Source: Candidatus Limnocylindrales bacterium (GTDB lineage: Bacteria; Chloroflexota; Limnocylindria; Limnocylindrales; CSP1-4). Taken from it: a DNA stretch of 64,000 bases. Each line of letters starts with the position of its first letter. Position 1 is the stretch's first letter. This document shows, piece by piece, positions 27,292 through 47,293 of the stretch. Made by a program: the position numbers and the translations under genes. The DNA is taken from NCBI GenBank assembly GCA_036834865.1, contig DAITNC010000001.1, forward strand, positions 1,939 through 65,938, given 5' to 3'. The notes under the pieces are model-generated. The model was not told where the DNA came from, did not search any database, and saw only the letters and a program-made list of their open reading frames with translations.

Positions 27292-27852
27292 ATGACGAAC
27301 CGTCCCTCGAGCGAGCAGGCGCAGGTGACGATCGCCTCCGAGGCGGCGCGCTGGGACGATCTCAGCCAGCTGCTCCAGCGCGGCGTGTTCTGCCCGCTCG
27401 CGGCCCGATGCTCCGTCGCTGACTTCCTCACGGGGCAGCTCGGGCTCGACCCCGACTACGTCCGTGACCGGATCGCGACCGTGTTCGTGGACGGCGCGGT
27501 GGTGGACGACCTCGCGGTCGCCACGCTGCGACCCGGCTCGACGCTCACCCTGTCGGCGGCGATGCCCGGGCTCGTGGGGGCGACCCTGCGCAAGGGCGGC
27601 TTCTACTCCGCGATGCGCTCGGAGATCAGCTGGAAGGGCGATGACGACGCGCGCCAGCCGCTCGACGGTCCACCGGGCACGATCCGGCTCAAGCTGTTCA
27701 ACAGCGTCATGCGCGAGATCGGCCCGACCCTGCTGCAGCGCGGCGTCCTGGTCGACCGCCGGGAAGCGGCGAGCGTCGCGGGAGCCCAGGGCACGGACGT
27801 GACCGACGCTCCCGGAGGCACGTGGGTGTCACTCAGGGTGGCCCCGCGATGA
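27292..27852 (+). CDS. hypothetical protein with beta-grasp (MoaD/ThiS-like) features
   Basis: 186 aa; 'IATVFVDGAVVDDLAVATLRPGSTLTL' resembles the C-terminal strand pattern of MoaD/ThiS. Immediately precedes the GG-terminated carrier. Confidence 0.45.
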   Translation: MTNRPSSEQAQVTIASEAARWDDLSQLLQRGVFCPLAARCSVADFLTGQLGLDPDYVRDRIATVFVDGAVVDDLAVATLRPGSTLTLSAAMPGLVGATLRKGGFYSAMRSEISWKGDDDARQPLDGPPGTIRLKLFNSVMREIGPTLLQRGVLVDRREAASVAGAQGTDVTDAPGGTWVSLRVAPR

Positions 27853-27871
27853 GGCGGGTCGGGCCCCGGTC

Positions 27872-28090
27872 GTGACGATCAAGCTGTTCGCCTCATTCCA
27901 GAAGGGGCGCTTCGCGGTCGAGACGAGGGAGTACCCGCCGGCGACGACCGTCGAGGAGATCGTCACGGACCTCCACATCCCGAAGCGCGAGATCGGCGTG
28001 CTGCTGGTGAACGGGCGGCACGTCTCCTTCGATCACCGCCCCGGCGGCGGCGACGTGCTGGCGATCTTCCCGGTCATCGGGGGCGGCTGA
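27872..28090 (+). CDS. MoaD/ThiS-family sulfur-carrier (ubiquitin-like) protein ending in Gly-Gly
   Basis: 72 aa, '...GGGDVLAIFPVIGGG*' with the C-terminal GG directly before the stop. Confidence 0.7.
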   Translation: MTIKLFASFQKGRFAVETREYPPATTVEEIVTDLHIPKREIGVLLVNGRHVSFDHRPGGGDVLAIFPVIGGG

Positions 28091-28097
28091 CCGACGG

Positions 28098-29294
28098 TCA
28101 GCCCGCCAGCGGGATCAGGTGGACGGCTGTCGCCTTGAACGTGACGAGGACCCTCCCGCCCGGGCCCAGCCCCATCTCCTCGGCCGAGGCCCGCGTGATG
28201 GAGGCGACGAGCGAGATCCCGCAGTCGATGGTCACCCGGACCAGCGAGCCCTGGGCAACCATCCTGGAGACGTCGCCCGGGAGCTGGTTCCGGGCGCTCG
28301 AGACGACTCTCGGCAACGAGCCCGTCGCTGACGTTCCCGGTGACCCGGAGACCGGCCCGGACACCTCGCCCGCCGGCGACCCGCCCACAACGCCGGACCA
28401 CAGCGTCACGTCCTCCGGCCGCAGACAGCACAGGACCGCGCGTCCCGGCCCGATGGCGGAGACGGCCTCGATCTGGCAGCCGCCGACGTCGACCATCGCA
28501 ACTCCCGCGCGGGTCGAGACGACGCGGCCAGGCAGGCGGGTCTCGGCGCCCACGAAGGCGGCCACGTCCTCGTCGAACGGCGCCGAGAGCACCCGCTCGG
28601 GCACGTCGCACTGGCGGAGTCGCCCCTCGACGACCACCGCCATCCGGTCGCCGAGACGGACGGCCTCGTCGAGATCGTGGGTCACGACAACGCAGGCGAC
28701 ATGCGTCTCGTGAAGGAGCAGCTCGAGATCGTCCACGAGCTTCGAGCGGGTGGCCGCGTCGACTGACGCGAACGGCTCGTCGAGCAGCAGGAGGTCCGGC
28801 TCGAGGACCAGCGCCCGTGCCAGGCTGACCCGCTGAGCTTCGCCGCTCGAGATCTGGCGGGCCGGACGGCGGCGCAGGTGGCCCACGCCCAGGCGCTCGA
28901 GCCATTCGGCAACCCTCGCCTCGACCTCGCCCGAGGAGACGCCGCGAAAGCGCAACCCGGCGGCGACGTTCGCGAACACCGACGTGTTGAGCAACAGCGG
29001 GTCGGGCAGGACGAGGCCGATGTGCCGACGGAACGCGAGCTCGTCGCGGGGCGCGACCGGCGATCCCCGAAACGAAAGCCGCCCGCGTGAAAGCGGGACG
29101 AGGCACGCCAGGGCCAGCAGGAGCGTGCTCTTCCCGGCCCCGTTCGGGCCGACCACGGCCAGCGTCTCGCGGTCCGCGAGTGCCAGGTGATCGATTGCCA
29201 GGACCGGGCGGGCGCCACGAACCACCACGAGGTCGCTGATCTCGACGAGGGGCGGCGTCGCGTCCGCGTTCGGTTCGTTCATGGTCGTGGGCAC
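28098..29294 (-). CDS. tupC: tungstate/molybdate ABC transporter ATP-binding protein with C-terminal TOBE domain
   Basis: Walker A 'GPNGAGKST', signature 'ISSGEAQR', Walker B 'LLLLDEPF'; C-terminal TOBE-like region. Confidence 0.85.
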   Translation of the reverse strand: MPTTMNEPNADATPPLVEISDLVVVRGARPVLAIDHLALADRETLAVVGPNGAGKSTLLLALACLVPLSRGRLSFRGSPVAPRDELAFRRHIGLVLPDPLLLNTSVFANVAAGLRFRGVSSGEVEARVAEWLERLGVGHLRRRPARQISSGEAQRVSLARALVLEPDLLLLDEPFASVDAATRSKLVDDLELLLHETHVACVVVTHDLDEAVRLGDRMAVVVEGRLRQCDVPERVLSAPFDEDVAAFVGAETRLPGRVVSTRAGVAMVDVGGCQIEAVSAIGPGRAVLCCLRPEDVTLWSGVVGGSPAGEVSGPVSGSPGTSATGSLPRVVSSARNQLPGDVSRMVAQGSLVRVTIDCGISLVASITRASAEEMGLGPGGRVLVTFKATAVHLIPLAG

Positions 29295-29301
29295 GGGCTC
29301 C

Positions 29302-30000
29302 CTAGCGCTGCGGACCGCGCTGCTGGGCCCACGTCAGCACGCCGTTGACCAGGAACGCCAGGGCCAGCAGGACGATGCCGAGCGCGACGGCCTTGATGAA
29401 CTCCCCGCGGCTCACGTCCAGGACGATCGCCGTGGTGAGCACGCGCGTCTGGTGGAGGATGTTGCCGCCGACCATCATCGCGGCGCCCACCTCCGAGATC
29501 ACACTGCCGAAGCCGGCCATGAGCGCCGCCAGCAGCGGCAACCGCGCTTCGCGCCACAGCCACCACACGGTCTGCCATCGCGACGCCCCCAGGCCCATCA
29601 GCTGCAGCCGCAGGCGCGGGTCAAGCTGCCCGAGCGCGGCGACTGTGAGGCCCAGGATGACGGGCGTCGCGATGATCACCTCGGCGATCACCATCGCGGA
29701 CGGCGTGTAGATGAGGCCCAGGTCACCCAGCGGACCACTGCGCCAGAGCGTGAACGCGACGAACAGCCCAACGACGACGGGCGGCAGCGCCATGCCAGTG
29801 TTGACCACGCTGATGACGAGCCCGCGGCTGCGAAACCGCGACAGGGCGAGCCACGTCCCGATCGGCAACCCGATCAGCAGGCTCAGGGCGGTCGCCAGCC
29901 CTGAGACGGCAAGCGACAGGAGGGTGATCTCGACGAGGTCGCCGCCGACCAGGCTCTGGAGCAGCTGCTGGGCCTGGTCGACGAGCGAGCCCGTGGTCAC
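29302..30000 (-). CDS. tupB: tungstate ABC transporter permease
   Basis: 232 aa, six TM helices, EAA-like loop; positioned between the binding protein and the ATPase. Confidence 0.85.
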   Translation of the reverse strand: MTTGSLVDQAQQLLQSLVGGDLVEITLLSLAVSGLATALSLLIGLPIGTWLALSRFRSRGLVISVVNTGMALPPVVVGLFVAFTLWRSGPLGDLGLIYTPSAMVIAEVIIATPVILGLTVAALGQLDPRLRLQLMGLGASRWQTVWWLWREARLPLLAALMAGFGSVISEVGAAMMVGGNILHQTRVLTTAIVLDVSRGEFIKAVALGIVLLALAFLVNGVLTWAQQRGPQR

Positions 30001-30010
30001 GCGCGGCAGT

Positions 30011-30925
30011 CTACTTGAGCGAGCTGTAGTCCTTGCCGGCGTCCGGGTTGAAGAGCGCCAGGCCGTATGTGTCGGTGCCGAACGTGCCGATGATCTGCTG
30101 CCCGGCGGTCCCGGTGACGTAGTCCTCGAACGCCTTTGCGCCCGCGGCGTTGACCTTCGGCCACTTCGCCGGGTTCACGGCGATGACGCTGTAGATGTTG
30201 ATGAGCGACGAGTCGCTCTTCACGAGGGCCTGGAGAGAGAGCTTCGATCTGTTGGCAAGGAACGTCGCGGTGTCGGTCAGCGTGTAGCCGCCCTTTTCCG
30301 AGGCGATCTGCAGCGTCGGCCCCATGCCCTGGCCGGACTGGACGTACCAGCTGCCCGCGGGCGTGATTCCCGCGGACTTCCAGAGGCTCAGCTCCTTGGT
30401 GTTCGTACCGGAGCTGTCATCGCGCGAGACGAACGTCGCAGCCGCGGCGGCGATCTTCTTGAAGGCGTCCACCGCCGAGGTCATGCCGCTGATCCCGGCC
30501 GGATCCGCCGCCGGGCCGACGATCCAGAAGTAGTTGTGCGCCACGAGGCGCCGGTCGACGCCCCATCCGGCGTCCATGAACGCCTGCTCCTGCGTCGGCG
30601 CATGGACGAACAGGACGTCGGCGTTGCCCTGCTGGCCCATCGTGAGCGCCTGGCCCGTGCCGACGGCGACGGTCTTCACGGTGTAGCCGGATGCCTTCTC
30701 GAAGGCGGGCACGAGGACGTCGAGCAGCCCCGAGTCCTGGAGCGAGGTCGTCGTGGCGAGGATCAGGGCGGTGGAGCCGGCCGGGGCGGCACTGGCGACC
30801 GGTGCGCTCGCCTGCGGGCTCGGCGACGCGGCCGAGCTGCAGGCCGCGGCGACCAGGACGAGCGCGATGAGGGGGGCGGTTCGCTCCAGCAGCCTGCGCT
30901 TCAACATCACCGTGCCACGTGCCAC
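30011..30925 (-). CDS. tupA: tungstate ABC transporter substrate-binding lipoprotein
   Basis: Lipobox 'LVAAACSS'; TupA-type 'ILATTTSLQDSGLLD' and 'ADVLFVHAP' motifs. GGAGGA lies 6 nt upstream of a GTG start. Confidence 0.8.
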   Translation of the reverse strand: MARGTVMLKRRLLERTAPLIALVLVAAACSSAASPSPQASAPVASAAPAGSTALILATTTSLQDSGLLDVLVPAFEKASGYTVKTVAVGTGQALTMGQQGNADVLFVHAPTQEQAFMDAGWGVDRRLVAHNYFWIVGPAADPAGISGMTSAVDAFKKIAAAAATFVSRDDSSGTNTKELSLWKSAGITPAGSWYVQSGQGMGPTLQIASEKGGYTLTDTATFLANRSKLSLQALVKSDSSLINIYSVIAVNPAKWPKVNAAGAKAFEDYVTGTAGQQIIGTFGTDTYGLALFNPDAGKDYSSLK

Positions 30926-31209
30926 AACCATTCCTCCAGAGATCCTGCCCACGGCCCACTCGCCCCGGGGAGCCGATGCCGCGTCGACCGAACGAGTGTC
31001 GGTTCGGAGCCCGGCCGGGAAGAGGGCCAGATGTCACCTTGAGCGAGATCATATGTGGCCATTCGGTCCGGCATCAACAGGTGTGCTGCCCATTCCTGTC
31101 CGCTTTACCTCGATATCCAGGCGCGCCTGCCTGACCCGCCGCGGACCCCGGGTAGAATGCAGTCGCGACGGGAGGCGCAACGAGTCCCGGCGAGGCAGCG
31201 GGAGGCGGG
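30926..31209. promoter_or_regulatory. divergent tupA / thiF-like intergenic region (candidate cofactor-responsive control region)
   Basis: 284-nt non-coding gap between divergently transcribed tungstate-transporter and E1-like genes; contains the hairpin ccgaac-gagtgtcg-gttcgg and a relatively AT-richer stretch. Confidence 0.3.
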
Positions 31210-32250
31210 TTGGCGACGAACGAGGTAGAAGACCGCGACCGGTACGCTCGCCAGTCGAGGTTCTGGGCAATCGGAACGGCTGGCCAGGAGCGGCTCAGTG
31301 CGGGCCGCGTCCTTGTCGTCGGGTGCGGTGCGCTCGGTTCCGCCGCGGTGAATCTCCTGGCCCGGGCGGGCGTGGGCCAGATCACGATCGTCGACCGCGA
31401 TTTCGTCGAGCTGGGCAATCTCCAGCGGCAGCTGCTTTTCGACGAGGCGGACGCCGCTGCCGGGACGCCGAAGGCCGTCGCCGCAGCCCTTGCCGTCGGG
31501 CGCATCAACTCCGAGATCGAAGTCCGCCCCTTCGTCGCCGACGTGACCCCGACCAACGTCGAGGAGTTCGTGGCGCATGCTGACGTGGTGCTCGATGGGA
31601 CGGACAACTTCGAGACCCGGTATCTCCTGAACGACGCCTGCGTGAAGCGTGGTGTCCCCTGGGTCTACGGCGGGGTGATCGGGTCGACGGGCATGTCGAT
31701 GACGATCGTGCCGGGCGAGACCCCATGCTTCCGGTGCCTGTTCCCGACGCCGCCCCCGGTCGGCACGATGGAAACCTGCGAGACGGCCGGCGTGCTTGCC
31801 GCGGGCGTCGTCACGGTGGCCGCCATCCAGTGCGCCGAGGTGATGAAGCTCCTCGTCGGCGACAGCCAGAACCGGAGCCGCGGGCTCACCGCCATCGACA
31901 TCTGGACCAACGACCACCTGCAGGCAGAGGGCACGCTCCGTGATCCCGGTTGCCCATGTTGCGGGCAGCGTCGCTTCGAGTACCTCGACGCGGTCGTGAC
32001 GAGCCGAACGGCGTCGCTCTGCGGTCGTGACGCGGTCCAGGTGAGCCCGGGCCGGCCCCTGGCGGTCGACCTCGCCGACCTCGGCCGGAGGCTCGGGGCG
32101 ACCGGGCCGGTGACCTCCAACGACTACCTCGTGCGGTGTGTCGTGGACGGGCACGAGATGACGATCTTCGTCGACGGTCGCGCGATCATCAAGGGCACGT
32201 CCGACCTCGCCGTGGCCCGCTCGCTGTACGCCCGGTATGTCGGCGCGTGA
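31210..32250 (+). CDS. ThiF/MoeB-family E1-like adenylyltransferase
   Basis: 'VLVVGCGALGSAAVNLLARAGVG' nucleotide-binding motif, CxxC...CxCC zinc cysteines. TTG start with GGAGG upstream. Confidence 0.85.
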   Translation: MATNEVEDRDRYARQSRFWAIGTAGQERLSAGRVLVVGCGALGSAAVNLLARAGVGQITIVDRDFVELGNLQRQLLFDEADAAAGTPKAVAAALAVGRINSEIEVRPFVADVTPTNVEEFVAHADVVLDGTDNFETRYLLNDACVKRGVPWVYGGVIGSTGMSMTIVPGETPCFRCLFPTPPPVGTMETCETAGVLAAGVVTVAAIQCAEVMKLLVGDSQNRSRGLTAIDIWTNDHLQAEGTLRDPGCPCCGQRRFEYLDAVVTSRTASLCGRDAVQVSPGRPLAVDLADLGRRLGATGPVTSNDYLVRCVVDGHEMTIFVDGRAIIKGTSDLAVARSLYARYVGA

Positions 32251-33400
32251 CGTGATCTACCTGGACAACGCCGCGACCTCGTTTCCGAAGCCGCCGGGCG
32301 TGGCGGAGAGCATCGTCGACTTCCTCGAGCACGGCGCCGGAAACCCGGGCCGGTCCGGCCATTCCCTGGCGATGGCCGCGCAGACCGTCGTCGCCGCCAC
32401 GAGGCGCCAGCTCGCCTCGCTGTTCGGGGTGCCCGACCCTTCGCGCGTCGTCTTTGCGCTCAACGCGACCGACGCCCTGAACACCGCGCTCTGGGGACTG
32501 CTGCGGCCGGGCGACCGCGTCGTCACCACCAGCATCGAGCACAACGCCGTCGCCCGGCCGCTCCACGCCCTGGCCGAACGCGGCATCGAGGTCACCCGGG
32601 TCGCCTGCGCCCCGGACGGCATGCTCGACCTGGACGACCTGGTCCGCGCGCTCCGGTCCGGCCCGGTCCGGCTGGTCGCGATGTGCCACGCCAGCAATGT
32701 CGTCGGCACGATCCTCCCGGTCCGGGACGCGGCGCAGCGGGCCCACGAGCACGGGGCGCTCTTCCTCCTGGACGCGGCGCAGACCGCGGGCGTCCTGCCC
32801 ATCGACGTGCGTGAGATGGGGATCGACCTGCTCGCAGTTCCGGGGCACAAGGGCCTGCTCGGGCCGACGGGCACCGGCGGGCTCTACGTGGCGCCTGACG
32901 TACGGCTCTCGCCGCTGCGCCAGGGCGGCACGGGCACGAGGTCCGAAGACGAGCGCCAGCCCGAGGAGCTGCCCGAGGCGCTCGAGGCGGGCACGCTCAA
33001 CACCGTGGGCATCGCCGGGCTGGGCGCAGCCCTCCGCTACCTCGGGGAGCGGGGGCAGCAGGGCATCCGGGCCCACGAGGTCGCCCTGACGACCAGGCTC
33101 ATCGACGGGCTGCGGGACGTCCCGGGCGTCCGGGTCCATGGGTCCGGGGATGCGGGCCGCCAGGTTGGAGTCGTCTCGCTGTCCGTGGAGGGCTGGGAGC
33201 CGGTGGACCTTGCAGCGGTGCTGGACAGCTCGTTCGGGATCGCGGTCAGGGCGGGGCTGCACTGCGCGCCGCTCGCGCACCGAACGCTGGGTACCTTCCC
33301 GCGCGGCACTGTCCGGCTTTCACCGGGCTGCTTCACCACCGACGAAGACGTGGACCAGGCGCTGGCCGCACTGCGGAAGCTGGCCGGCAGCGCCGCCTGA
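32237..33400 (+). CDS. cysteine desulfurase (class V aminotransferase)
   Basis: 'YLDNAATSFPKP', 'SGHKGLLGPTGTGGLYV' (PLP Lys), 'AGLHCAPLAHRTLG' (active-site Cys loop). Confidence 0.85.
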   Translation: MSARDVIYLDNAATSFPKPPGVAESIVDFLEHGAGNPGRSGHSLAMAAQTVVAATRRQLASLFGVPDPSRVVFALNATDALNTALWGLLRPGDRVVTTSIEHNAVARPLHALAERGIEVTRVACAPDGMLDLDDLVRALRSGPVRLVAMCHASNVVGTILPVRDAAQRAHEHGALFLLDAAQTAGVLPIDVREMGIDLLAVPGHKGLLGPTGTGGLYVAPDVRLSPLRQGGTGTRSEDERQPEELPEALEAGTLNTVGIAGLGAALRYLGERGQQGIRAHEVALTTRLIDGLRDVPGVRVHGSGDAGRQVGVVSLSVEGWEPVDLAAVLDSSFGIAVRAGLHCAPLAHRTLGTFPRGTVRLSPGCFTTDEDVDQALAALRKLAGSAA

Positions 33401-33429
33401 GCCCCGCGGTTCCCCATGGCGGACGTCGC

Positions 33430-34740
33430 TCATCGAAGACATTGGAACGGGCCGGTGCACCAGAGGCAGGCCGCGCAGGGCACCCTGCTGATGTGGCAGT
33501 CCTGCTCGAAGTCGGCGCCTCTCACGTAGTCGCACATCGCCAGGTTGCAGTCGTAGCAGAACGGAAAGTCGTACGCCGTCACGTCTCCGCGGAAGGTGCG
33601 CCATTCCTCGGCATTCCAGGTCTCGAGGATCCCCTGCGTCGCGACGTTGCCGAAGGTCCTTGGCTCCACCACCTTGACGAGCCCGGCCAGGTGGCACTGG
33701 AAACGGTGCCAGAGGAAGTAGCAGGGGTGAAGGTCGCCATCCCACGAGACAAAGGCCGATCCTTCCTCGACGAACTCGCACCGCCGCACCTGGGTCGGAA
33801 CCGTGTTCGGGAGCTGCAGGTCGACACCGAGCTCGCGCGCGATGCCCGTTGCGTCGCCGAACGCCTCCTCGACCTCGCGGAGGCGCGCCTCGTCGAAGCG
33901 GAGCAGCTCGGCCACCTTGAGCGACACGTGCTGGGCGGTGGCGTCGGCGATCATGCCGCGGACGGATTCGATCGCCCGGGCGTCCTCGGCCGACGGCGAG
34001 ATCTGCATGAACGTGTCGAGGTAGCGCCCGAAGTCCACTCCTTCCGCGGCCGCCCGGTCTCGCCACGCTCGGTAGATCCCGAGCGCGCGATCGGACGTTG
34101 GGCTGAACGCCGCTTCGCCTGCCATCGCGGCGTCGTACGGGAGCATGTGGCTGACGATGAGGAACCCGAAGCCGTGGCCGGCAGCCCACCTGACCAGGTC
34201 CGGAAGCTGGTGGAGGTTGCTCCGCATCGCGACGAACTCGAGGCCCAGGCTGACCGATCGGCCGGAGCGGGCTGCCGAGTCGTGGAGCCACCCGGCGGCG
34301 GACTCGATCGCCCCGATGCGCGCCCCGCCGTGGAGCGCCTTGAGCTGGCCCGGCTCGACCGAATCGGCCGAGATGCAGATGCGATCGACGCCCGCCGCGA
34401 CCAGCGACTCGGCTCGCCGGTGCCCGAGCAGCTGGCCGTTTGTCTGGAACCCGATCCAGCCACTGGTGGGCATCGCGGCCCGCGCCGTCTCGATGAACCC
34501 CTCGAGTCCCCGGTGGAGCGTCGGCTCGCCGATCCCGTTGAGGACGAGCGCGTCGAGGTTCGGAAAGGCGGGGGCCAGGCGTTCGAAGGTCTCCGCGCTC
34601 ATGTCGCCCTCGACGAGACCCTGCCCCGGGGCCTGCTTGACGCACATGGCGCAGCGAAGGTTGCAGCGCGTCGTCACCTCCACGAAGAGCTTGGAGGGAT
34701 ACGGGCGGCGATACGCAGGCATCGTCACGGAGGGCGGCAT
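33430..34740 (-). CDS. radical SAM protein with SPASM domain (MoaA/NifB/PqqE family; Cmo-like)
   Basis: 'TTRCNLRCAMC' CX3CX2C cluster, plus a C-terminal seven-Cys SPASM-type pattern (CX9C, CX2CX5C, CX6CX2CX2C). Confidence 0.8.
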   Translation of the reverse strand: MPPSVTMPAYRRPYPSKLFVEVTTRCNLRCAMCVKQAPGQGLVEGDMSAETFERLAPAFPNLDALVLNGIGEPTLHRGLEGFIETARAAMPTSGWIGFQTNGQLLGHRRAESLVAAGVDRICISADSVEPGQLKALHGGARIGAIESAAGWLHDSAARSGRSVSLGLEFVAMRSNLHQLPDLVRWAAGHGFGFLIVSHMLPYDAAMAGEAAFSPTSDRALGIYRAWRDRAAAEGVDFGRYLDTFMQISPSAEDARAIESVRGMIADATAQHVSLKVAELLRFDEARLREVEEAFGDATGIARELGVDLQLPNTVPTQVRRCEFVEEGSAFVSWDGDLHPCYFLWHRFQCHLAGLVKVVEPRTFGNVATQGILETWNAEEWRTFRGDVTAYDFPFCYDCNLAMCDYVRGADFEQDCHISRVPCAACLWCTGPFQCLR

Positions 34741-34930
34741 GTGCAAAGCGTGACCGTTCCGAGCCCGGCGTGCAGGGCCACCGCGCCCCTTGGGCGGGGA
34801 CCCCTCGATGGCGTTGGGGCGAACCGGTAGTCTACGGATGGCCGTCCCGAGCTCGGTGCTGATCCCGCGCGCGAGCGGCAGGTTCCTTTCGATTCCGCCT
34901 TCGTTCGATGCCGCCCTGGAGGGACGTCGC

Positions 34931-36145
34931 ATGCCCGGGTTCGAGGAAGCGCGCCGGATCGTGCTCGAGCGGGTCAGCCCCATGGGCTGCGAGGTGGTGC
35001 CGCTGCTCGGCGCGGTCGGGCGGGTCCTTGCCGCCGACCAGGCAGCCCCCTGGGACATGCCCCAGTGGGACAACTCCGCGATGGACGGCTTCGCGGTCCG
35101 GGCATCCGACTGCGCCGATCCGAACGGCCTGGCCGTTGCCGGCTTTCTCCCCGCCGGCCAACCCGCGGTCGAGGCGCTCGCGAACGGAACGGCGATCCGG
35201 ATCATGACGGGTGCGCCGCTGCCGCCGGGCGCCGACGCGGTCGTCCCCTTCGAGGAGGCGGAGGAGCGCGCCGGGCTGGTCTTCGCGAGGCGTCGCCCGG
35301 TCGCGGGCGATCACGTCCGCCGGAGGGGCGGCGACATCCGCGAGGGCGCGACCGCGCTCGAGGCGGGGGCCGTCATCGGGGCCGCCGAGGTCTCCCTGCT
35401 CGCGTCACTGTCCAGGACGTCGGTGCCCGTCGTCCGCCGGCCCCGGGTCGCGATCCTCTCCACCGGGGACGAGCTCCTGGAGCCCGGAGAGCCGCTCGCC
35501 GCCGGGAAGATCTACAACAGCAATGCGCAGGCGTTGGCGGCGGCCGCCCTGCGGGCCGGCGCGATACCGGTCGTGCTGCCCATCGCGCGCGACGACCGCG
35601 CGGCGTTGCGGACCCAGCTCGTCGAGGGCCTGCGCGCCGACGCGCTGGTCACGACCGCCGGCGTCTCGGTCGGGGACCGCGACCTCGTGCGCGAGGTGTT
35701 GCGCGACCTTGCGGTCGAGGAGGTGTTCTGGAAGGTCGACATCCAGCCCGGCCGCCCGACGGCATTCGCGCTCTCGGGGATCACGCCGGTCTTCTCGCTG
35801 CCCGGGAACCCGGTCGCCGCACTGCTCACGTTCGAGATGTTCGTCCGGCCGGCCCTGCGCCGGATGATGGGTCATTCGCGGCCGCTGGACGTGCCGGTCC
35901 GCGCCCGTCTCGGAGACGCGGTCATGCCAAGGCAGGATCGAGTCACCCTGAGGCGGGTCCGCCTCGAGCGGATCGGCGACCAGATCGTGGCGTCGAGCGC
36001 GGGCAGCCAGGCCACGGGCTTCCTGCGGACGATGGTCGGCGCCGATGGGGTCGCCATCATTCCCGCCGGCCTGGACAGCGTTGCCGCCGGCAGTGTCGTG
36101 GACGTCTACACGCTCCGCGAGGACTGCCTGATCGGGGGCGCCTGA
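34931..36145 (+). CDS. moeA: molybdopterin molybdenum/tungsten-transferase MoeA
   Basis: MoeA family ('TGAPLPPGADAVV', 'ILSTGDEL', 'LPGNPVAA'). GGAGGG RBS 7 nt upstream of the ATG; the long in-frame upstream extension was rejected. Confidence 0.85.
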   Translation: MPGFEEARRIVLERVSPMGCEVVPLLGAVGRVLAADQAAPWDMPQWDNSAMDGFAVRASDCADPNGLAVAGFLPAGQPAVEALANGTAIRIMTGAPLPPGADAVVPFEEAEERAGLVFARRRPVAGDHVRRRGGDIREGATALEAGAVIGAAEVSLLASLSRTSVPVVRRPRVAILSTGDELLEPGEPLAAGKIYNSNAQALAAAALRAGAIPVVLPIARDDRAALRTQLVEGLRADALVTTAGVSVGDRDLVREVLRDLAVEEVFWKVDIQPGRPTAFALSGITPVFSLPGNPVAALLTFEMFVRPALRRMMGHSRPLDVPVRARLGDAVMPRQDRVTLRRVRLERIGDQIVASSAGSQATGFLRTMVGADGVAIIPAGLDSVAAGSVVDVYTLREDCLIGGA

Positions 36146-36193
36146 GCGCGCCCCAGGGACTGGATCCGGCTCCGCGCTCGCGGAGCCGGACGC

Positions 36194-37930
36194 TCAGAAG
36201 TTGAAGACCGCGTCCAGGTCCGCGTCCTTCACCTGGAACTTCACGTTGTGCGGCGCCAGCGCCTCCTCCTCGAAGAAGCGGGGCAGGCGATCGTCCGCCG
36301 CGCTGAAACCGGCCCGGGTGTTGAAGTCGCGCTCCGCGGTGAGCACCTTCTTGCCCAGGGCCGTCACGTCGTCGGCCGTGAGGTTGATGTCGTAGAAGCC
36401 GTTCAGGAGCTCGACCAGCGCGTTGAAGGTCTCGGGCTGGTCGAGGACCGGGAAGGCGATGAAGAGACACATGCCGGTGGAGTCGATCGCCGCGGTCGCG
36501 ATCTGCAGGTTGCGTGACAGCTCAACCTGGCCCTCCGGCTTGAGGGGATCGACGAAGCCGCCCACCTTGAGGATGTTTGCCGTGACGGCGTAGCCGGCCG
36601 TGTGGTCGGCGCCCATCGGGGTCGTGGCGTAGGTGACGCCCATGCCCTGGACGGCCCGTGGATCGTAGGCCGGGAGCGCCTGGTTCTTGACCACCGGCAC
36701 TCGCTCGACGCCGAAGGCCTTGCCGGTCGCGCCGGCGCCCGAGCCGATGATCCGGCCGAGCGGGGTGCCCTTGCCGACCTCGGACAGGACGCGGATGGCG
36801 CCCTGGCCGTCGCCGAACTTGAGGAGCCCGCCTTCCATGGCGACGCCGATGGCCACGCCGGTCTCGATCGTGTCGAGACCGAAGTCATCGTCCATCCGGT
36901 CGAGCTGCTGGATGATGTCGAGGTCGGAGATGCCGCAGTTGCCCCCATGCGACCAGACGGTCTCGTACTCGGCCTGCTTGCTCAGGTACTTGCCGGTCGT
37001 GTCGTTGTAGATGCCGGAGCACTGGATGATGCAGCCGCGGTGGCAGCCGTGCGTGGCCTCACCGCCTCGCTCGGTCATCGTCGCGGCCTGCGTCTCGCCG
37101 CTGATCTTCGTCGCGCCCTCGAACTGGCCCGCGCTGAAGTTGCGCGTCGGGTAGCCGCCAGCCTCGTTGAGGATGTTCGTCAGGACGTTGGTCCCGAACG
37201 CCGGGAGGCCGGTGCCGGTGACGCCGTGGCTCCGAAGCCCCTCGTTGAAGATCTTCGCCGCGGCCTTGAAGCGCGCCGCGTCGGCCGGCGGTCGGGTCAC
37301 GGTCCCGGTCTCGTCGAGGATGAACGCCTTGATCTTCTTGGAGCCCATCACAGCGCCCACGCCGCCGCGCCCCATGTGGCGGGTCGGGTGCAGCTCGCGG
37401 TCGCAGGCCGCGATCGAGGCGGCTGGCAGCATCATCTCGCCGGCTTGGCCGATGAGCATGAAGGTGACCTTCTCGCCATAGGCGGCCCGGAGCGCCTCGA
37501 CGCTGGCGTAGGTGCCGAGGCCCTTGAGGCCGTTGTCAACCTTGAACGAGACGCCCTTCCTGTTGATGAGGACCGTCCAGAGGTCGTCGCCCGCGGGCCT
37601 GCCTTCGACGATGATCGCCGCGTAGCCGAGCCGGGCGATCGCCTGGCCCGCCTGGCCGCCGGCGTTCGCCTCCTTGATCCCGCCCGTGAGCGGGCTCTTG
37701 CAGCCGACGGAGATGCGGCCGCTCGTGGATGCCGCGGATCCGGTGAGCATGCCCGGCGCGAAGACGAGCTTGTTGGCCGCGCTCAGCGGGTGGCACTGCG
37801 GATCGACCTCGGCGCTCACGACGAGCGAGGTCATGGCGCGGCCGCCCAGCCCGGCGTAGTCGCCAAGCGGCTGGATCGTCGCCTTCGGGCCGCCCTCGGC
37901 ACTCATGTCGATGCGAAGGATCTTGTCCAT
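36194..37930 (-). CDS. aor: tungsten-containing aldehyde:ferredoxin oxidoreductase
   Basis: AOR N- and C-terminal domains ('MDKILRIDMS', 'GRISVGCKSPLTGG', 'DSTGMCLF'). Confidence 0.9.
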   Translation of the reverse strand: MDKILRIDMSAEGGPKATIQPLGDYAGLGGRAMTSLVVSAEVDPQCHPLSAANKLVFAPGMLTGSAASTSGRISVGCKSPLTGGIKEANAGGQAGQAIARLGYAAIIVEGRPAGDDLWTVLINRKGVSFKVDNGLKGLGTYASVEALRAAYGEKVTFMLIGQAGEMMLPAASIAACDRELHPTRHMGRGGVGAVMGSKKIKAFILDETGTVTRPPADAARFKAAAKIFNEGLRSHGVTGTGLPAFGTNVLTNILNEAGGYPTRNFSAGQFEGATKISGETQAATMTERGGEATHGCHRGCIIQCSGIYNDTTGKYLSKQAEYETVWSHGGNCGISDLDIIQQLDRMDDDFGLDTIETGVAIGVAMEGGLLKFGDGQGAIRVLSEVGKGTPLGRIIGSGAGATGKAFGVERVPVVKNQALPAYDPRAVQGMGVTYATTPMGADHTAGYAVTANILKVGGFVDPLKPEGQVELSRNLQIATAAIDSTGMCLFIAFPVLDQPETFNALVELLNGFYDINLTADDVTALGKKVLTAERDFNTRAGFSAADDRLPRFFEEEALAPHNVKFQVKDADLDAVFNF

Positions 37931-38300: not shown

Positions 38301-41270
38301 GTGAAGCCACAACCGGTCGGTCCGGTGACGCTCGTCGAGCCCGGTGGGCGGGTCCACCGCTCGACCGTCACCGGGGCGCGGCGCCGCGAGCTGGAGGCGG
38401 CGCTCCGGCTGGCGGTGCGCGGCGAGGTCGGCTTCGATGGCGGCACGCGCGCCGTCTACGCCACCGACTCGTCGAACTACCGCCAGGTGCCCCTTGGGGT
38501 CGTCTTCCCGCGTGACCACGAGGATGTCGTCGCGTCGATGCGTGTCTGCGCCGAGTTCGACGCGCCGGTCCTCGCCCGCGGCGCGGGCACCAGCCTGGCG
38601 GGCCAGGCCTGCAACGTCGCGGTCGTGCTCGACACAAGCCGGCACATGAGGAAGATCCTCGAGATCGACCCGGTCGCTCGGACCGCCCGGGTGCAGCCGG
38701 GCGTGGTGCTCGACGACCTGCGACGCGCTGCAGAGGAGCATGGGCTGACGTTCGGGCCCGACCCCGCGACGCACGCCTGGTGCACGCTCGGCGGGATGAT
38801 CGGCAACAACTCGTGCGGCAGCCACGCGCTCTTCGCCGGCAAGACCGTCGACAACGTCGAGCGGCTCACCGTCGTGGAGTACGGGGGCGCCACCCTGGAC
38901 GTGGGCGCCTACGACGACGTCGCCTTCGGTGCGGTGGTGGCCCGCGGCGGCCGCCTGGCGGAGGTGCTCGAAGGCCTGCGCGAGATCGGGGGCAGGCACG
39001 CGGACCTGGTGCGGGCGCGCTTCCCGCAGATCCCCCGGCGGGTGAGCGGCTACAACCTGGACCAGCTCCTGCCCGAGCACGGCTTCAATGTCGCCCGCGC
39101 CCTCGTCGGGACGGAATCCACCTGCGCGGTGGTCACCGAGGCGACGCTGCGCCTGAGCGCCAGCCCGAGGCACCGCCGCCTCGTGGTGCTGGGCTACCGG
39201 GACGTCTTCATTGCCGCCGACGCCGTGCCGTCGCTGCTCCGCCATCCGCTGCTGGCGCTGGAGGGATTCGACGGCACCCTCGTCGACCAGATGCGGGCAC
39301 GCCCGCTGAACGTCGAGCACCTCGCGCTCCTGCCGGAGGGCGGCGGCTGGCTGATGGCCGAGCTCGGCGCCGACGATCCTCGCGAGGCTGACCGGCTGGC
39401 CAAACGGTTCGTCGCCGACCTGCCGGGCGAGGTCACCTGGCGCCGCTACGACGACGCGGAGCGGCAGGGCCGGGTGTGGCTCGTGCGCGAGTCCGGTCTC
39501 GGTGCCACCGCCATCACGGAGGACGGCACACGCAACCACGAGGGCTGGGAAGACGCGGCCGTCGCGCCGGAGCAGCTCGGGGCCTACCTCCGCGCGATCA
39601 CCGCGCTGCGGGCGGAGTTTGGCTACTCGGGTGCCTGGTACGGCCACTTCGGCCAGGGGTGCGTGCACACGCGCAACAACTTCGACTTCAGCACCGCCGA
39701 GGGCCTTGGGGCCTACCGGCACTTCATCGAGCGGGCCGCCGATCTCGTCGTGTCGCTGGGCGGCTCCCTGTCGGGCGAGCACGGCGACGGCCAGGCCCGC
39801 GGGGAGCTCCTCGTCCGGATGTACGGGCCCGACCTGGTCGACGCCTTCCGCCAGTTCAGGGCCGTCTTCGATCCGCGCGGGCGGATGAACCCGGGCAAGG
39901 TCGTGGACGCCTACCCGATCGATGCCAACCTGCGCTACGGGCCCACCTACCGGCCGGCGAGCCTGGGGCCGTCGACGTTCGCGTTCGGCAGCGCCGGACA
40001 TTCGCTCCAGGCAGCGGCAGAGCGGTGCGTGGGCGTGGGTCGCTGCCTGCGCGACGACGCCGGGACCATGTGCCCCTCTTTCCGCGCCACCCGCGACGAG
40101 CGGCACTCGACGCGGGGCCGCGCGAAGCTCCTTGTCGAGCTGTTCCAGGGTGAGACCACCCGGGGGAGCTGGCGCAATCGGGACGTTCGCGAGGCGCTCG
40201 ACCTCTGCCTCGCGTGCAAGGGCTGCGCCGTGGATTGCCCCACCGGCGTGGACATGGCGGCATACAAGTCGGAGTTCCTCTCTCACCATTACGCGCGCCG
40301 GCTGCGGCCGCGGGCCATGTACGCGCTCGGCCTCCTGCCCTGGACGGCGAGGGTGGCGACCCGCCTGCCCCGGTTGTCGAACGCCATCCTGGGCGCGCCC
40401 GGCGTCGGGAAGGCCGTACGCCGGCTGGCGGGGATCACGACGGCACGGCCCGTTCCGCGGTTCGCCGGGCGGTCATTCCGCCACGGCAGCACCGCCGCGG
40501 TTCGCCGGGACGATCCGCATGCCACGGTCGTCGTCTGGCCCGACACGTTCACGGACGCTTTCCGCCCCGAGATCGCCGCCGATCTCGTGGCCGTCCTCGA
40601 GGCCATCGGCGAGCGCGTGGCCGTTCCCTCGTCGTGGGCGTGCTGTGGCAGGCCGCTCTACGACGCCGGCATGCTGGGGCTGGCCCGCCGCTCCCTCACG
40701 GACCTCCTGGACGTGCTCGAGCCGTGGACGTCCCGCGGGATCCCGGTGGTCGTGCCCGAGCCGAGCTGCCTGGCCGCGTTCCGGGACGAGCTCCCCGCGC
40801 TCCTTCCCGGCGACCCCCGGTCGGCGGTGCTGGCATCGCTGGCGCGCAGCCCTGCCGAGCACATGCTGGCGACCCCGGCGTTCGACGCGGCGATCGCCGA
40901 CGCGCAGGCCCGCCGTCGCGGCGGCGGCGGGCCTGCGCGGGCCGTGGTGCATCCTCATTGTCACGGCCGGGCGATCGGGACGCCCCGGGCGGATCGCGAG
41001 CTCCTGGAGCGGCTGGGCTTCCGGCCCGAGATGCTCGACGCCGGCTGCTGCGGACTCGCCGGGTCGTTCGGGTACCGGGCGGAGCACGAGGCGTTGTCCC
41101 GGCGGATCGGCGCGGAATACTGGCTTCCCAGGGTGAGGACCGCGATCGACGGGGGCGAGAAGGCCGCGCTGGTGGTGGATGGCTTCAGCTGCGCGACGCA
41201 GCTCGAACAGCTCTCGGCTCTCGAGTCGACCGCCCTCGTCTCGCTCGTGCGTCGATCGCTCGGCTGCTGA
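38301..41270 (+). CDS. FAD-binding oxidase fused to Fe-S/CCG domains (GlcD-GlcF-like; D-lactate/glycolate dehydrogenase family)
   Basis: 989 aa: N-terminal PCMH FAD domain ('GAGTSLAGQA'), ferredoxin-like 'CLACKGCAVDCP', and two C-terminal Cys-rich CCG repeats. Confidence 0.85.
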   Translation: MKPQPVGPVTLVEPGGRVHRSTVTGARRRELEAALRLAVRGEVGFDGGTRAVYATDSSNYRQVPLGVVFPRDHEDVVASMRVCAEFDAPVLARGAGTSLAGQACNVAVVLDTSRHMRKILEIDPVARTARVQPGVVLDDLRRAAEEHGLTFGPDPATHAWCTLGGMIGNNSCGSHALFAGKTVDNVERLTVVEYGGATLDVGAYDDVAFGAVVARGGRLAEVLEGLREIGGRHADLVRARFPQIPRRVSGYNLDQLLPEHGFNVARALVGTESTCAVVTEATLRLSASPRHRRLVVLGYRDVFIAADAVPSLLRHPLLALEGFDGTLVDQMRARPLNVEHLALLPEGGGWLMAELGADDPREADRLAKRFVADLPGEVTWRRYDDAERQGRVWLVRESGLGATAITEDGTRNHEGWEDAAVAPEQLGAYLRAITALRAEFGYSGAWYGHFGQGCVHTRNNFDFSTAEGLGAYRHFIERAADLVVSLGGSLSGEHGDGQARGELLVRMYGPDLVDAFRQFRAVFDPRGRMNPGKVVDAYPIDANLRYGPTYRPASLGPSTFAFGSAGHSLQAAAERCVGVGRCLRDDAGTMCPSFRATRDERHSTRGRAKLLVELFQGETTRGSWRNRDVREALDLCLACKGCAVDCPTGVDMAAYKSEFLSHHYARRLRPRAMYALGLLPWTARVATRLPRLSNAILGAPGVGKAVRRLAGITTARPVPRFAGRSFRHGSTAAVRRDDPHATVVVWPDTFTDAFRPEIAADLVAVLEAIGERVAVPSSWACCGRPLYDAGMLGLARRSLTDLLDVLEPWTSRGIPVVVPEPSCLAAFRDELPALLPGDPRSAVLASLARSPAEHMLATPAFDAAIADAQARRRGGGGPARAVVHPHCHGRAIGTPRADRELLERLGFRPEMLDAGCCGLAGSFGYRAEHEALSRRIGAEYWLPRVRTAIDGGEKAALVVDGFSCATQLEQLSALESTALVSLVRRSLGC

Positions 41271-41346: not shown

Positions 41347-42249
41347 CTACCAGTATTCCTCGGTGTGGATCGTCCCGATGGCGCGGCCGCGGTCGCGGAC
41401 GAACCCGCGGTCCGCCAGCCGCCCGATCACGGTCTCGATCATCCCGGGGTTGCCGCACAGGTAGACGTGGAAGTTGTCCGGCTCCAGCTGGAGGCCGGTC
41501 GCCTCCTCGATGACCCCGGAGAAGAGGACCTCCTGGAGGTAGCCGGTACGGCCACGCCAGGTGGGATCCTCCTGGGGGCGCGTGATGACCGGGAGGTAGG
41601 TGAGGTTGGGGCAGTGCCGGGCGAGGCTTGTCAGCTCGGTTCGGTAGCCCAGGTCCCACGAGCAGCGCGCACCGTGGAGGACGACGATGCGGCGGGTCCC
41701 GCCGCACTCCAGGTCGGTGCGCAGCATGGAGATGTACGGTGCGAGGCCGGTCCCGGTGGCCACCAGGATCACGTGGTGGTCCCGGGGGGCCTTCTCCAGG
41801 GTGAACATCCCCACCGCCTTCGGGCCGACGTAGATGCGGTCCTTGATCCCGAGGTTGAAGAGGCGCGGCGTGAGATCCCCGCTCATGACCACGGTGATGC
41901 AGAACTCCAGGAACTCGTCGGACTGGCTGCTCGACGCGATCGAGTAGGCCCGCCGGATCAGCTTGTCGGGGTCCGGGCGCGCGGTCGTGACGGCTCGCTG
42001 CGCCGCCGACTCGGCGGCCGGCTGGGCCGGCGCGGTGACCTCCGCCGTCCGGGCCTCCTCCGGGCGGTACGCCAGCTCGTCAGGCTCGGCCTCGTCGATC
42101 CGGGGCTCCGAGGCCTTGAGGCCGAGGACGACGTACTGGCCGGCCTTGAACTCGAACTGGGGCGCGTCGGGGACGATCCGCAGGATGATCAGCCCGGGCG
42201 CCAGCTCGACTCGCTGGGCCACGGTCGCGTTGTACTCCGCTGCCGCCAT
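41347..42249 (-). CDS. fpr: ferredoxin-NADP+ reductase (plant-type FNR)
   Basis: 'RAYSIASS' FAD motif, 'ATGTGLAPY' NADP motif, C-terminal 'TEEYW'. Confidence 0.85.
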   Translation of the reverse strand: MAAAEYNATVAQRVELAPGLIILRIVPDAPQFEFKAGQYVVLGLKASEPRIDEAEPDELAYRPEEARTAEVTAPAQPAAESAAQRAVTTARPDPDKLIRRAYSIASSSQSDEFLEFCITVVMSGDLTPRLFNLGIKDRIYVGPKAVGMFTLEKAPRDHHVILVATGTGLAPYISMLRTDLECGGTRRIVVLHGARCSWDLGYRTELTSLARHCPNLTYLPVITRPQEDPTWRGRTGYLQEVLFSGVIEEATGLQLEPDNFHVYLCGNPGMIETVIGRLADRGFVRDRGRAIGTIHTEEYW

Positions 42250-42315
42250 ACGGCCTCCCAATCGCCAGGTGCAGGATCCGCGGCCGGCTGGTCACGGATC
42301 GCCTGATCGTTCGAA

Positions 42316-42391
42316 TGGCGCCCCCGGCAGGAGTCGAACCCGCAACCAACCGGGTAGAAACCGGTCGCTCTGTCCATTGAGCTACGGGGGC
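42316..42391 (-). tRNA. tRNA-Arg (anticodon TCT)
   Basis: Reverse complement folds as a cloverleaf: GCCCCCG acceptor, T-loop GGTTCGACTCC, anticodon stem ACCGG/CCGGT with loop TTTCTAC, CCA encoded. Confidence 0.8.
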
Positions 42392-45027: not shown

Positions 45028-46101
45028 TCAGGTCCTGCGCGTCACCCCATGCCCGGGCGCGTCGCCCAGGAGCCACCGGCAGTCAGGGCCCAGCTCGAGG
45101 CCCGTGAACGGATCCTGGGCCAGGAGCAGGCAGCCATCGAGGTCCACCCACTCCGCGAGGCTCGCGACGGCCGCGGACGCGGCGATCCCGACCGACGTCT
45201 CCTCCATGCAGCCGAGGAACGTCCGGAAGCCCAGCTCCCTGGCGCGCGCCAGCATCCGCGCCGCGGGGCCCACGCCGCCGCACTTGGCGAGCTTCACGTT
45301 GACCCCGTCGACGACCCCGACCAGCGCATCGAGATCCTCGATCGCGACGGCCGACTCGTCGGCGACGATCGGGAGCGGCGAGATCGCCTGCAGGTCGCGG
45401 AGCCAGTCGTAGCGCCGGGGCGGGAACGGCTGCTCGATCAGCTCGACGCCCAGCCGGACGAGCTGTGGGACGATCGCCGCAGCCCCCTCCGGCGTCCAGC
45501 CGACGTTGGCGTCGACCCGGATGGGACCGTCGAACACGCTCCGAACCGCCTCCAGCGTGGCGAGATCCTTCGGCCCACCCACCTTGATCTTCAGGGCCGG
45601 AAAGCGGGCGCTTCGGCGGGCCCGCTCCGCGACGACCGCCGGCTCGTCCAGGCCCAGCGTGAAGTCGGTCGGCGGGATCTCGGGCGAAAGTCCCAGCAGG
45701 CGGTGCAGGGGCAGGCCCAGGGCCTTGCCGGCGAGGTCGTGCAGGGCGATGTCGAGGGCGCACTTGGCCGCCCCGTTGCCGCGGATCGCGTCGTCGAACG
45801 CGGCGCCGATCGCGGCCAGCGCGGCCCGTGCGGCGTCGACGCCGGAAAGGTCGAGCGCCCCTGGCGGCACGGCCGCGAGGAGATGAGCCATGACGACCGG
45901 CATCGTCAACGGCGTCTCGCCGTAGTACGTCTCGGGGCAGCCCTCGCCGATGCCGACCAGGCCCGGCAGCGTCGGCGAGCGCAGCTCGACCACGACCGTC
46001 GTGACGGCGTGGCCCTTGCCGGGCGCATTCCGGGCGATCACGAAGGGATCCCGGAACGGGAGGTGGAGCGTCTCGACGCGCAGGTCCCACGCGGCGCTCA
46101 C
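45028..46101 (-). CDS. dipeptide epimerase (L-Ala-D/L-Glu epimerase; enolase superfamily)
   Basis: MR/MLE-type motifs ('LKIKVG', 'IRVDANVGW', 'IEQP', 'ADES' catalytic Lys/Asp/Glu positions). GTG start overlaps the DUF1611 stop. Confidence 0.8.
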   Translation of the reverse strand: MSAAWDLRVETLHLPFRDPFVIARNAPGKGHAVTTVVVELRSPTLPGLVGIGEGCPETYYGETPLTMPVVMAHLLAAVPPGALDLSGVDAARAALAAIGAAFDDAIRGNGAAKCALDIALHDLAGKALGLPLHRLLGLSPEIPPTDFTLGLDEPAVVAERARRSARFPALKIKVGGPKDLATLEAVRSVFDGPIRVDANVGWTPEGAAAIVPQLVRLGVELIEQPFPPRRYDWLRDLQAISPLPIVADESAVAIEDLDALVGVVDGVNVKLAKCGGVGPAARMLARARELGFRTFLGCMEETSVGIAASAAVASLAEWVDLDGCLLLAQDPFTGLELGPDCRWLLGDAPGHGVTRRT

Positions 46102-47201: not shown

Positions 47202-47293
47202 CGGTCCTCCTGGGCAGTTGACGGGTCGCCGACCGTGGTCGCCGAAAGGGTAACGCCCCCGGGGCGCGGACCGGGGGCGTCGGGATATTCGGT

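Follow-up and report, generated by a model that had tools for sequence, protein, structure and literature searches.

A TIGR04311 radical SAM/SPASM enzyme in a Chloroflexota tungsten gene island: linkage to one clade of tungsten aldehyde oxidoreductases and a possible role as their dedicated maturase

A 64,000-nt stretch of a Candidatus Limnocylindrales contig (DAITNC010000001.1), referred to below as the window, carries a minus-strand gene for an enzyme of the radical S-adenosylmethionine (SAM) type with a C-terminal SPASM domain, and this gene lies within an island of tungsten-related genes that ends in a tungsten aldehyde oxidoreductase (AOR). The encoded protein is a member of NCBIfam family TIGR04311, a sister family of the archaeal Cmo proteins, and AORs recur beside its relatives across several phyla. 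We lean toward the view that it is a maturase dedicated to one AOR clade, with a pterin or tungsten cofactor as its probable substrate. Since the window has a GC content of 72%, open reading frames (ORFs) were picked by third-position GC (GC3). The ORF at 33430-34740, which starts with ATG at 34740 and stops at 33430-33432, has a GC3 of 0.88 and is coding by composition. The start is supported by a metagenomic protein (P0001) that is 98% identical and likewise 436 amino acids (aa) long. The gene and its immediate features are as follows.

33430..34740, minus strand: radical SAM/SPASM gene, 436 aa, member of NCBIfam TIGR04311
34642..34665, minus strand: codons of the CX3CX2C motif (C26, C30, and C33), the [4Fe-4S] site for SAM cleavage, read from the translation
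33826..34098, minus strand: helical insert of ~85 residues (~215-305) that separates the radical SAM core from the SPASM domain
33439..33780, minus strand: extended SPASM domain, residues 321-434, from the Pfam SPASM match and a cysteine census
34741..34930, no strand: divergent intergenic region of 190 bp between the radical SAM gene and moeA

Pfam Radical_SAM matches residues 20-154 (E = 6.6e-11), and Pfam SPASM matches residues 321-399 (E = 6e-13; 49.3 bits against a cut-off of 21.5). The SAM-cluster motif reads C26-N-L-R-C30-A-M-C33, and its cysteines are present in 195 to 199 of 200 TIGR04311-like sequences, the remainder being alignment gaps. An earlier note on this DNA had placed a radical SAM/SPASM gene here, and the Pfam matches, the TIGR04311 match, the CX3CX2C motif, and GC3 agree with it. 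Its description of the surroundings also stands: the gene diverges from moeA across the 190 bp between ATG 34740 and ATG 34931, an AOR gene lies 1.45 kb off with moeA in between, and no credible small ORF that could encode a peptide precursor is present in the intergenic DNA flanking the gene. Neither a molybdenum or tungsten cofactor (Moco/Wco) riboswitch nor a consensus promoter was detected upstream of the radical SAM gene.

The TIGR04311 match (rSAM_Geo_metal, curated as "radical SAM/SPASM family putative metalloenzyme maturase") reaches 557.6 bits against a cut-off of 400 (E = 1.8e-167), with residues 14-435 covering positions 1-423 of the 423-position model. More than 1,640 homologs were found in the database, all named ones bearing the TIGR04311 name, and the window protein agrees with more than 1,600 of them in length, insert, and cysteine pattern, with nothing to set it apart. 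The notion of a new type of enzyme is therefore to be given up, because the family is already curated and named, although no characterized member of it and no literature on it were found. The runner-up family is TIGR04317 (W_rSAM_matur, "tungsten cofactor oxidoreductase radical SAM maturase"), which the window protein matches in two separate stretches with 219.2 bits against a cut-off of 380. Genuine members of TIGR04317 score between 393 and 475 bits, and at their top stands the Cmo protein of Pyrococcus furiosus (P0476, "cofactor modifying protein"), which scores 475 bits with TIGR04317 and 226 bits with TIGR04311 and shares 24% identity with the window protein by BLASTP. Because P. furiosus Cmo is a TIGR04317 protein and the window protein falls under that cut-off, the window gene is not a Cmo ortholog but a member of TIGR04311, a sister family. 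The earlier note had called it the bacterial counterpart of cmo, which does not fit these scores, and TIGR04317 itself has bacterial members beside AOR genes. An exhaustive search of cluster representatives reached two more groups besides TIGR04311-type proteins, one of ~365 aa made up of genuine TIGR04317 members and one of ~430 aa that is intermediate and falls under both cut-offs.

Outside these two maturase families, the hidden Markov model (HMM) scores of the window protein are far under the NCBIfam cut-offs: 64.6 bits for MoaA (TIGR02666, cut-off 284), 43.6 for PqqE (cut-off 381), 37.1 for NirJ (cut-off 515), 34.3 for AhbC (cut-off 650), and 34.1 for the mycofactocin enzyme MftC (cut-off 265), with AhbD likewise far below. 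The MoaA C-terminal domain Mob_synth_C (PF06463) gives no match. Among the window ORFs scanned against Pfam, there are no pqq, nir, ahb, or sulfatase genes. Placement inside a characterized family such as anSME or NirJ was thus not found, and the closest named relatives are the AOR-linked Cmo proteins.

In the C-terminal half, the window protein holds 11 cysteines. A census of 200 TIGR04311-like and 116 TIGR04317-like sequences found nine C-terminal cysteines to be at least 98% conserved in both families (C321, C340, C395, C398, C403, C415, C422, C425, and C434), as are the three N-terminal ones, while C349 (~90%) and C428 (~88%) are frequent in TIGR04311 only. The earlier note had described a seven-cysteine SPASM pattern, and this count has to be raised to nine conserved family-wide and 11 in the window protein. 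When compared with the reference motif of PF13186 (CX9-15GX4C, gap, CX2CX5CX3C, gap, C; seven cysteines), the first half-motif is canonical (C321-X13-G335-X4-C340), the second deviates in spacing (C395-X2-C398-X4-C403-X11-C415), and a tail follows (C422-X2-C425-X2-C428-X5-C434). Nine cysteines are one beyond the needs of two fully ligated [4Fe-4S] clusters. A third auxiliary cluster on the CX2CX2CX5C tail was considered and rejected, as C428 is conserved in only 88% and is not found in the sister family, and the nine universal cysteines are too few for three four-cysteine clusters.

The insert of ~85 residues is present in TIGR04311 and absent from Cmo and TIGR04317, as judged by alignment with TIGR04317 members and by BLASTP against Cmo. 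An AlphaFold2 (AF2) model places helices at residues 217-304 in the insert, with predicted local distance difference test (pLDDT) values of about 75-95. Reading the cluster geometry from the same model was abandoned at the tail (residues 391-436), where pLDDT falls below 50. No close solved structure was found for the window protein, its fold neighbors being generic SPASM/twitch enzymes (BlsE, SkfB, MoaA, SuiB, and anSME). PqqE and MoaA align with it by sequence over the N-terminal core only.

Among characterized enzymes, MoaA has the most similar radical SAM core, and both proteins belong by context to a pterin-cofactor pathway. MoaA carries Mob_synth_C and a three-cysteine auxiliary site, whereas the window protein has a nine-cysteine SPASM domain. 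The enzymes anSME, PqqE, NirJ, AhbC, and AhbD share the two-domain architecture with auxiliary Fe-S clusters and are similar at the level of fold, but the window protein differs from them in the spacing of the second half-motif and in the extra C-X2-C...C tail. The Cmo/TIGR04317 proteins, which include P. furiosus Cmo and tk1064 of Thermococcus kodakarensis, are nearest by HMM score and have in common the CX3CX2C core, the nine C-terminal cysteines, and a similar neighborhood of AOR and a ThiS/MoaD-like ubiquitin-like protein (Ubl). To these features the window protein adds the helical insert, C349, and C428, and it differs in lying next to another AOR clade (~43% identity between clades) and in being accompanied by a small protein, here called p212.

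The tungsten island spans 27292-37930 of the window and comprises genes for p212, a Ubl, a tungstate (Tup) transporter, an E1 enzyme, a desulfurase, the radical SAM enzyme, MoeA, and AOR. Besides the radical SAM gene, its members are as follows.

27292..27852, plus strand: p212, 186 aa, conserved hypothetical protein specific to the cassette, with no Pfam or NCBIfam match
27872..28090, plus strand: ThiS/MoaD-type Ubl with a GG end ("WorX"), 72 aa, Pfam ThiS and Ub-Mut7C
28098..30952, minus strand: tungstate ABC transporter, tupCBA-like, Pfam PBP_like_2, BPD_transp_1, and ABC_tran plus TOBE
30011-30952, minus strand: TupA as best NCBIfam match, under the equivalog cut-off
29302-30000, minus strand: TupB as best NCBIfam match, under the equivalog cut-off
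28098-29294, minus strand: ATPase with a TOBE domain, WtpC as best NCBIfam match, under the equivalog cut-off
31210..32250, plus strand: ThiF/MoeB-type E1 adenylyltransferase, Pfam ThiF 256 bits, PRK12475 371 bits (cut-off 510)
32237..33400, plus strand: cysteine desulfurase of the class V aminotransferase fold, TIGR01977 455 bits (cut-off 377)
34931..36145, plus strand: MoeA, molybdopterin molybdo/tungsto-transferase, Pfam MoeA_N, MoCF_biosynth, and MoeA_C
36194..37930, minus strand: single-subunit (Class I-type) tungsten AOR, 578 aa, AFOR_N and AFOR_C

The AOR was confirmed to start at the Met that is residue 33 of its ORF, which at its longest reaches 38026. Its relatives in the PDB are 9mqx_D, 1aor, and 8c0z, and alignment with 1aor and 9mqx shows that it keeps the catalytic Glu and His as well as the cluster cysteines. 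The E1 is presumed to activate the Ubl. Canonical moaA, moaC, and moaE were not found among the window ORFs scanned. In the window, 5.3-6.4 kb separate the Ubl and p212 from the radical SAM gene, which they adjoin in many relatives; the earlier note had overlooked these conserved partners. In the three loci of the closest relatives (L002-L004), the AOR and radical SAM genes are direct neighbors on one strand, about 70-100 bp apart, and in the window moeA, in opposite orientation, splits what elsewhere looks like an AOR-radical SAM operon.

Gene context was compared over 80 loci of relatives at 46-87% identity, one genome per species, of which 41 have at least 5 kb of flanking sequence on both sides (full-flank loci). 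Neighbors were identified by tblastn with the window proteins and, separately, by all-against-all clustering of the neighboring ORFs, and the two approaches were concordant. The partners found were the following.

AOR: 42 of 80 loci; 26 of 41 full-flank loci, 25 of those within 5 kb
GG-terminated Ubl: 37 of 80 loci; 18 of 41 full-flank loci
p212: 29 of 80 loci; 19 of 41 full-flank loci
ThiF-type E1: 21 of 80 loci; 12 of 41 full-flank loci
Cysteine desulfurase: 8 of 80 loci; 5 of 41 full-flank loci

The linkage to AOR, found in five phyla, runs throughout the radical SAM tree, including Chloroflexota, Anaeromyxobacter, Nitrospirota, Syntrophales, Acidobacteriota, and Betaproteobacteria, and in the related loci examined the Ubl and p212 were never seen without AOR. 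Syntrophales loci show translational coupling of the E1 gene to the radical SAM gene. The Tup transporter recurs in L002-L004, L030, L033, L084, L085, and L086, and MoeA lies near the cassette also in L084, L085, L087, and L088. With distant p212 homologs as anchors, the same cassette was reached again, in which Tup and MoeA accompany a long radical SAM gene (448-481 aa). In one locus with a Chloroflexota-type cassette (L085), the radical SAM gene overlaps at its 3' end with the gene of a DUF4213/DUF364 protein (10544-11320), which is a single sighting.

The sister family shows a comparable arrangement. In six TIGR04317 contexts, AOR lies directly upstream in five and a ThiS-like gene is present in three, and the bacterial members next to AOR come from Caldisericum and Desulfitibacter. 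In Pyrococcus abyssi, the stop of the ThiS gene abuts the start of the radical SAM gene. The same order is found in T. kodakarensis, with AOR (tk1066), UblC (tk1065), and the radical SAM protein (tk1064), of which the last is only said that it "might be involved" in cofactor maturation (PMC11323500). The Fervidicoccus fontis cluster (L087, 1-6155) has the order MoeA-MoaA-MoaC-AOR-ThiS-radical SAM (Cmo); this compact archaeal cluster holds nearly the whole tungsten-cofactor pathway next to AOR, with MoaE conspicuously missing. As canonical MoaA and MoaC share this cluster with the sister enzyme, a role in replacing MoaA is excluded.

The AORs beside TIGR04311 genes form one tight clade, to which the window AOR belongs, with a median pairwise identity of 77%. 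Those beside TIGR04317 genes are 62-81% identical among themselves and ~43% identical to the TIGR04311-linked AORs. L085 encodes one more AOR, not next to its radical SAM gene, and this one belongs to neither clade. Each radical SAM family is paired with its own AOR clade, and this co-diversification argues for a specific relationship between enzyme and maturase.

Most Ubl ORFs of the related loci end in GG, a few having a short tail beyond it, and many relatives, as well as Thermococcales, have the Ubl gene next to the radical SAM gene or in translational coupling with it. In the 2026 WOR classification, the ThiS-like neighbor of the AOR genes is named WorX, of unknown function (PMC13328260). 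For p212, ~317 relatives were found, the named ones all being "hypothetical" and none having a Pfam domain, and no solved PDB structure matched in a fold search. The motif LSAAMPGLVGATLRR..Y..MR is invariant across the homologs and sits in residues 94-120, a loop of low AF2 confidence. A "SAAMPG" strand like the MoaD C terminus and a weak Foldseek match to 2q5w_D (probability, 0.20) had suggested a MoaD- or Ubl-like protein; this homology is unsupported, as p212 reached a probability of only 7% when its profile was compared with those of the cassette Ubls. A cofactor chaperone, a docking partner, and a substrate are candidate roles for p212. It was not seen in the six TIGR04317 contexts examined, and on these few cases it may go together with the TIGR04311-specific insert.

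A cofactor is the most likely substrate of the window enzyme, as the earlier note had also supposed. Membership in the family, the arrangement of cysteines, the linkage of the genes, and the co-diversification with the AOR clade are shown here; substrate, pathway step, and chemistry are inferred. The linkage, its recurrence in two families across Archaea and Bacteria, the co-diversification, and the pathway content of the island together point to an AOR-dedicated maturase that would act after the synthesis of cyclic pyranopterin monophosphate (cPMP). The module would serve to produce an active tungsten AOR of one clade, its parts being TupABC for tungstate uptake, MoeA for metal insertion, p212, the radical SAM enzyme, and AOR itself, with a sulfur relay that would lead from the cysteine desulfurase through the ThiF/MoeB-type E1 to the GG-terminated Ubl WorX. 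The N-terminal [4Fe-4S] cluster would split SAM to yield a 5'-deoxyadenosyl radical, which would then take a hydrogen from a pterin-type substrate downstream of cPMP, such as molybdopterin (MPT), W-MPT, or the bis-pterin tungsten cofactor; WorX, p212, or apo-AOR may hold the substrate during this step. With two auxiliary clusters and a spare cysteine, the nine-cysteine domain would bind the substrate or shuttle electrons or sulfur. It is conceivable, if rather doubtful, that the TIGR04311 and Cmo enzymes, together with the Ubl as sulfur donor and p212, carry out a radical-SAM sulfur step on the tungsten cofactor. The Ubl would then be a thiocarboxylate donor charged by the E1 and the cysteine desulfurase, the sulfur would be accepted by the ninth conserved cysteine or a site-differentiated auxiliary cluster, and the product would be a dithiolene made by a MoaE-independent route or a terminal sulfido ligand put on tungsten. 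If true, such a step would be an unrecognized addition to pyranopterin cofactor biosynthesis that is specific to AOR-family enzymes.

Several points weigh against an AOR-dedicated cofactor maturase. AOR crystal structures show the ordinary bis-pyranopterin cofactor with no extra modification known, so that the need for radical chemistry is unclear, and characterized SPASM enzymes mostly act on peptides or proteins. The literature searched holds only "might be involved" statements on either family, with no biochemistry or genetics. No AOR, Ubl, or p212 was found within 10 kb in 15 of the 41 full-flank loci; the clades without AOR within this distance are Geobacter/Desulfuromonadales, Desulfobacteraceae, and some Acidobacteriota, and their neighbors are heterogeneous, with no common theme. 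The missing riboswitch leaves the gene without a tie to cofactor regulation, and the low confidence of the AF2 tail leaves the number and geometry of the clusters unreadable.

The main rival reading, in keeping with the preference of SPASM enzymes for peptides and proteins, is that the enzyme is an anSME-like maturase that installs a posttranslational modification on AOR or on the p212 loop with LSAAMPGLVGATLRR..Y..MR and does not act on a pterin. SkfB, SuiB, and anSME are among its fold neighbors, p212 is specific to the cassette and its invariant, AF2-disordered loop would fit a substrate or docking segment, p212 accompanies only the long, insert-bearing form of the enzyme in all contexts examined, and the tight one-to-one pairing of AOR clade and radical SAM family would suit a protein substrate as well. 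We nevertheless regard a protein substrate as improbable on balance, since p212 is present in just 19 of the 26 AOR-linked full-flank loci and unseen in the six sister-family contexts despite the common nine-cysteine domain, no modification has been reported in solved AOR structures, and the top structural and HMM neighbors also include enzymes acting on small molecules (BlsE, MoaA, NirJ, and AhbC). The loci lacking AOR raise the further question of a role unrelated to AOR, for instance as a general Fe-S or metalloenzyme maturase, with proximity reflecting a co-transferred island of anaerobic genes. They amount to 37% of the full-flank loci and have mixed neighbors (PabB-like genes, extracytoplasmic function [ECF] sigma factors, the ACR3-like permease, methyl-accepting chemotaxis proteins [MCPs], and alanine racemase), and the NCBIfam name of TIGR04311 is deliberately generic. 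Such a role is nonetheless unlikely, as Chloroflexota, Myxococcota, Nitrospirota, Syntrophales, Acidobacteriota, and Betaproteobacteria keep the AOR partners despite shuffled gene order, the linkage is seen once more, independently, in archaeal and bacterial contexts of the sister family, and the AOR and radical SAM families co-diversify.

Two further readings are given very little weight. A MoaA-like GTP 3',8-cyclase paralog that makes cPMP specifically for the tungsten cofactor would agree with MoaA being the best characterized HMM family after the two maturase families and among the top fold matches, and with the lack of a canonical moaA among the window ORFs scanned. This reading is already largely refuted by the MoaA score of 65 bits against 284 with no Mob_synth_C domain, by the full nine-cysteine SPASM domain as opposed to the three-cysteine twitch domain of MoaA, and by the canonical MoaA and MoaC alongside the sister enzyme in the Fervidicoccus cluster. 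The SPASM architecture, together with a 30-codon GTG ORF in the intergenic DNA that separates the radical SAM gene from moeA, might recall a maturase of ribosomally synthesized and posttranslationally modified peptides (RiPPs) acting on an unannotated small precursor, but this is scarcely to be expected: an ORF of 30 codons is nothing unusual at 72% GC, the intergenic stretch lacks conservation, with AOR abutting the radical SAM gene in the closest relatives, neighbor clustering revealed no conserved small ORF save the GG-terminated Ubl, and Pfam and NCBIfam detected no leader-binding RiPP recognition element (RRE) domain.

A conserved alternative partner for the AOR-less loci was sought by unbiased clustering, and none was found; an ACR3-like permease and a small thioredoxin-like protein recur in four loci each. 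The permease, a multi-pass membrane protein similar to ACR3-type arsenite permeases and identified by eye only, is encoded on the strand of the radical SAM gene and directly upstream of it in L037 (8849-9919) and three more AOR-less loci. In addition, 12 loci, mostly of Nitrospirota (L044, L051, L054, L057, L059, L061, L064, L067, L068, L070, L077, and L078), encode a conserved protein of ~170 aa (p170) just downstream of the radical SAM gene and on its strand; p170 has no Pfam or NCBIfam match and is absent from the window.

Beyond the island, a 989-aa fusion protein (38301-41270, plus strand) diverges from AOR and combines an FAD-linked oxidase, a 4Fe-4S dicluster, and a CCG domain, resembling YdiJ (D-2-hydroxyglutarate dehydrogenase), and the next gene (41347-42261, minus strand) encodes an FNR-like NAD(P)/FAD reductase. 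The two are candidates for redox partners or for members of a hydroxyacid/aldehyde pathway. FNR-like matches near the cassette also occur in L006, L007, and L009, at 31% identity. A tRNA-Arg(TCT) (42316-42391, minus strand) lies immediately past the FNR-like gene and is followed by an ORF (42571-44145, plus strand) with a partial DNA methylase (N6_N4_Mtase) match; these two could mark the edge of a mobile or variable region beside the tungsten island. The longest DUF1611 ORF (46098-47384, minus strand) overlaps tRNA-Glu(CTC) (47294-47370, minus strand), so its N terminus is over-called and the true start lies downstream of the tRNA. At the other end of the window, an acyl-CoA metabolism cluster (1146-13026) encodes thiolase, acyl-CoA dehydrogenase, 3-hydroxyacyl-CoA dehydrogenase, MeaB, a separate B12-binding subunit, and the methylmalonyl-CoA mutase large subunit, with GTP cyclohydrolase I (6010-6735) embedded in it. 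The minus-strand region 55226-61543 is a housekeeping one with lipoyl synthase, the second radical SAM gene of the window, followed by a full 2-oxoacid dehydrogenase complex (E2, E1 beta, E1 alpha, and E3).

Part of the picture was known before. The link of the sister family to AOR has been recognized since Cmo was named a "cofactor-modifying protein" from its sequence (Kletzin et al. 1995, as cited in PMC11323500) and is built into the TIGR04317 name. The aorABCDE operon of Aromatoleum aromaticum encodes a tungsten AOR with a MoaD-like AorD and AorE, for which W-cofactor maturation is putative (PMC6365974). That operon has three AOR subunits (AorABC) and no radical SAM gene, whereas the window has a single-subunit AOR, a radical SAM enzyme, an E1, and p212; an Aromatoleum nanowire preprint contains nothing on aorD or aorE. 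The 2026 WOR classification (June 2026, PMC13328260) never mentions a radical SAM partner, and literature searches for TIGR04311, TIGR04317, and "cofactor modifying protein" returned no matches. The additions made here are the nine-cysteine signature, the division into two families by AOR clade, the ruling out of a MoaA role, and the recognition of p212, which may merit its own family definition, as a part of the module.

Tungsten AORs are, to our knowledge, the only enzymes known to reduce nonactivated carboxylic acids. They are wanted for biocatalysis, and the active enzyme is difficult to make in foreign hosts. The analysis defines a compact gene set for them, consisting of AOR, WorX, the E1, p212, and the radical SAM enzyme, to which the desulfurase, MoeA, and Tup may be added, and it distinguishes two radical SAM sister families that each go with an AOR clade of their own and a dedicated Ubl.

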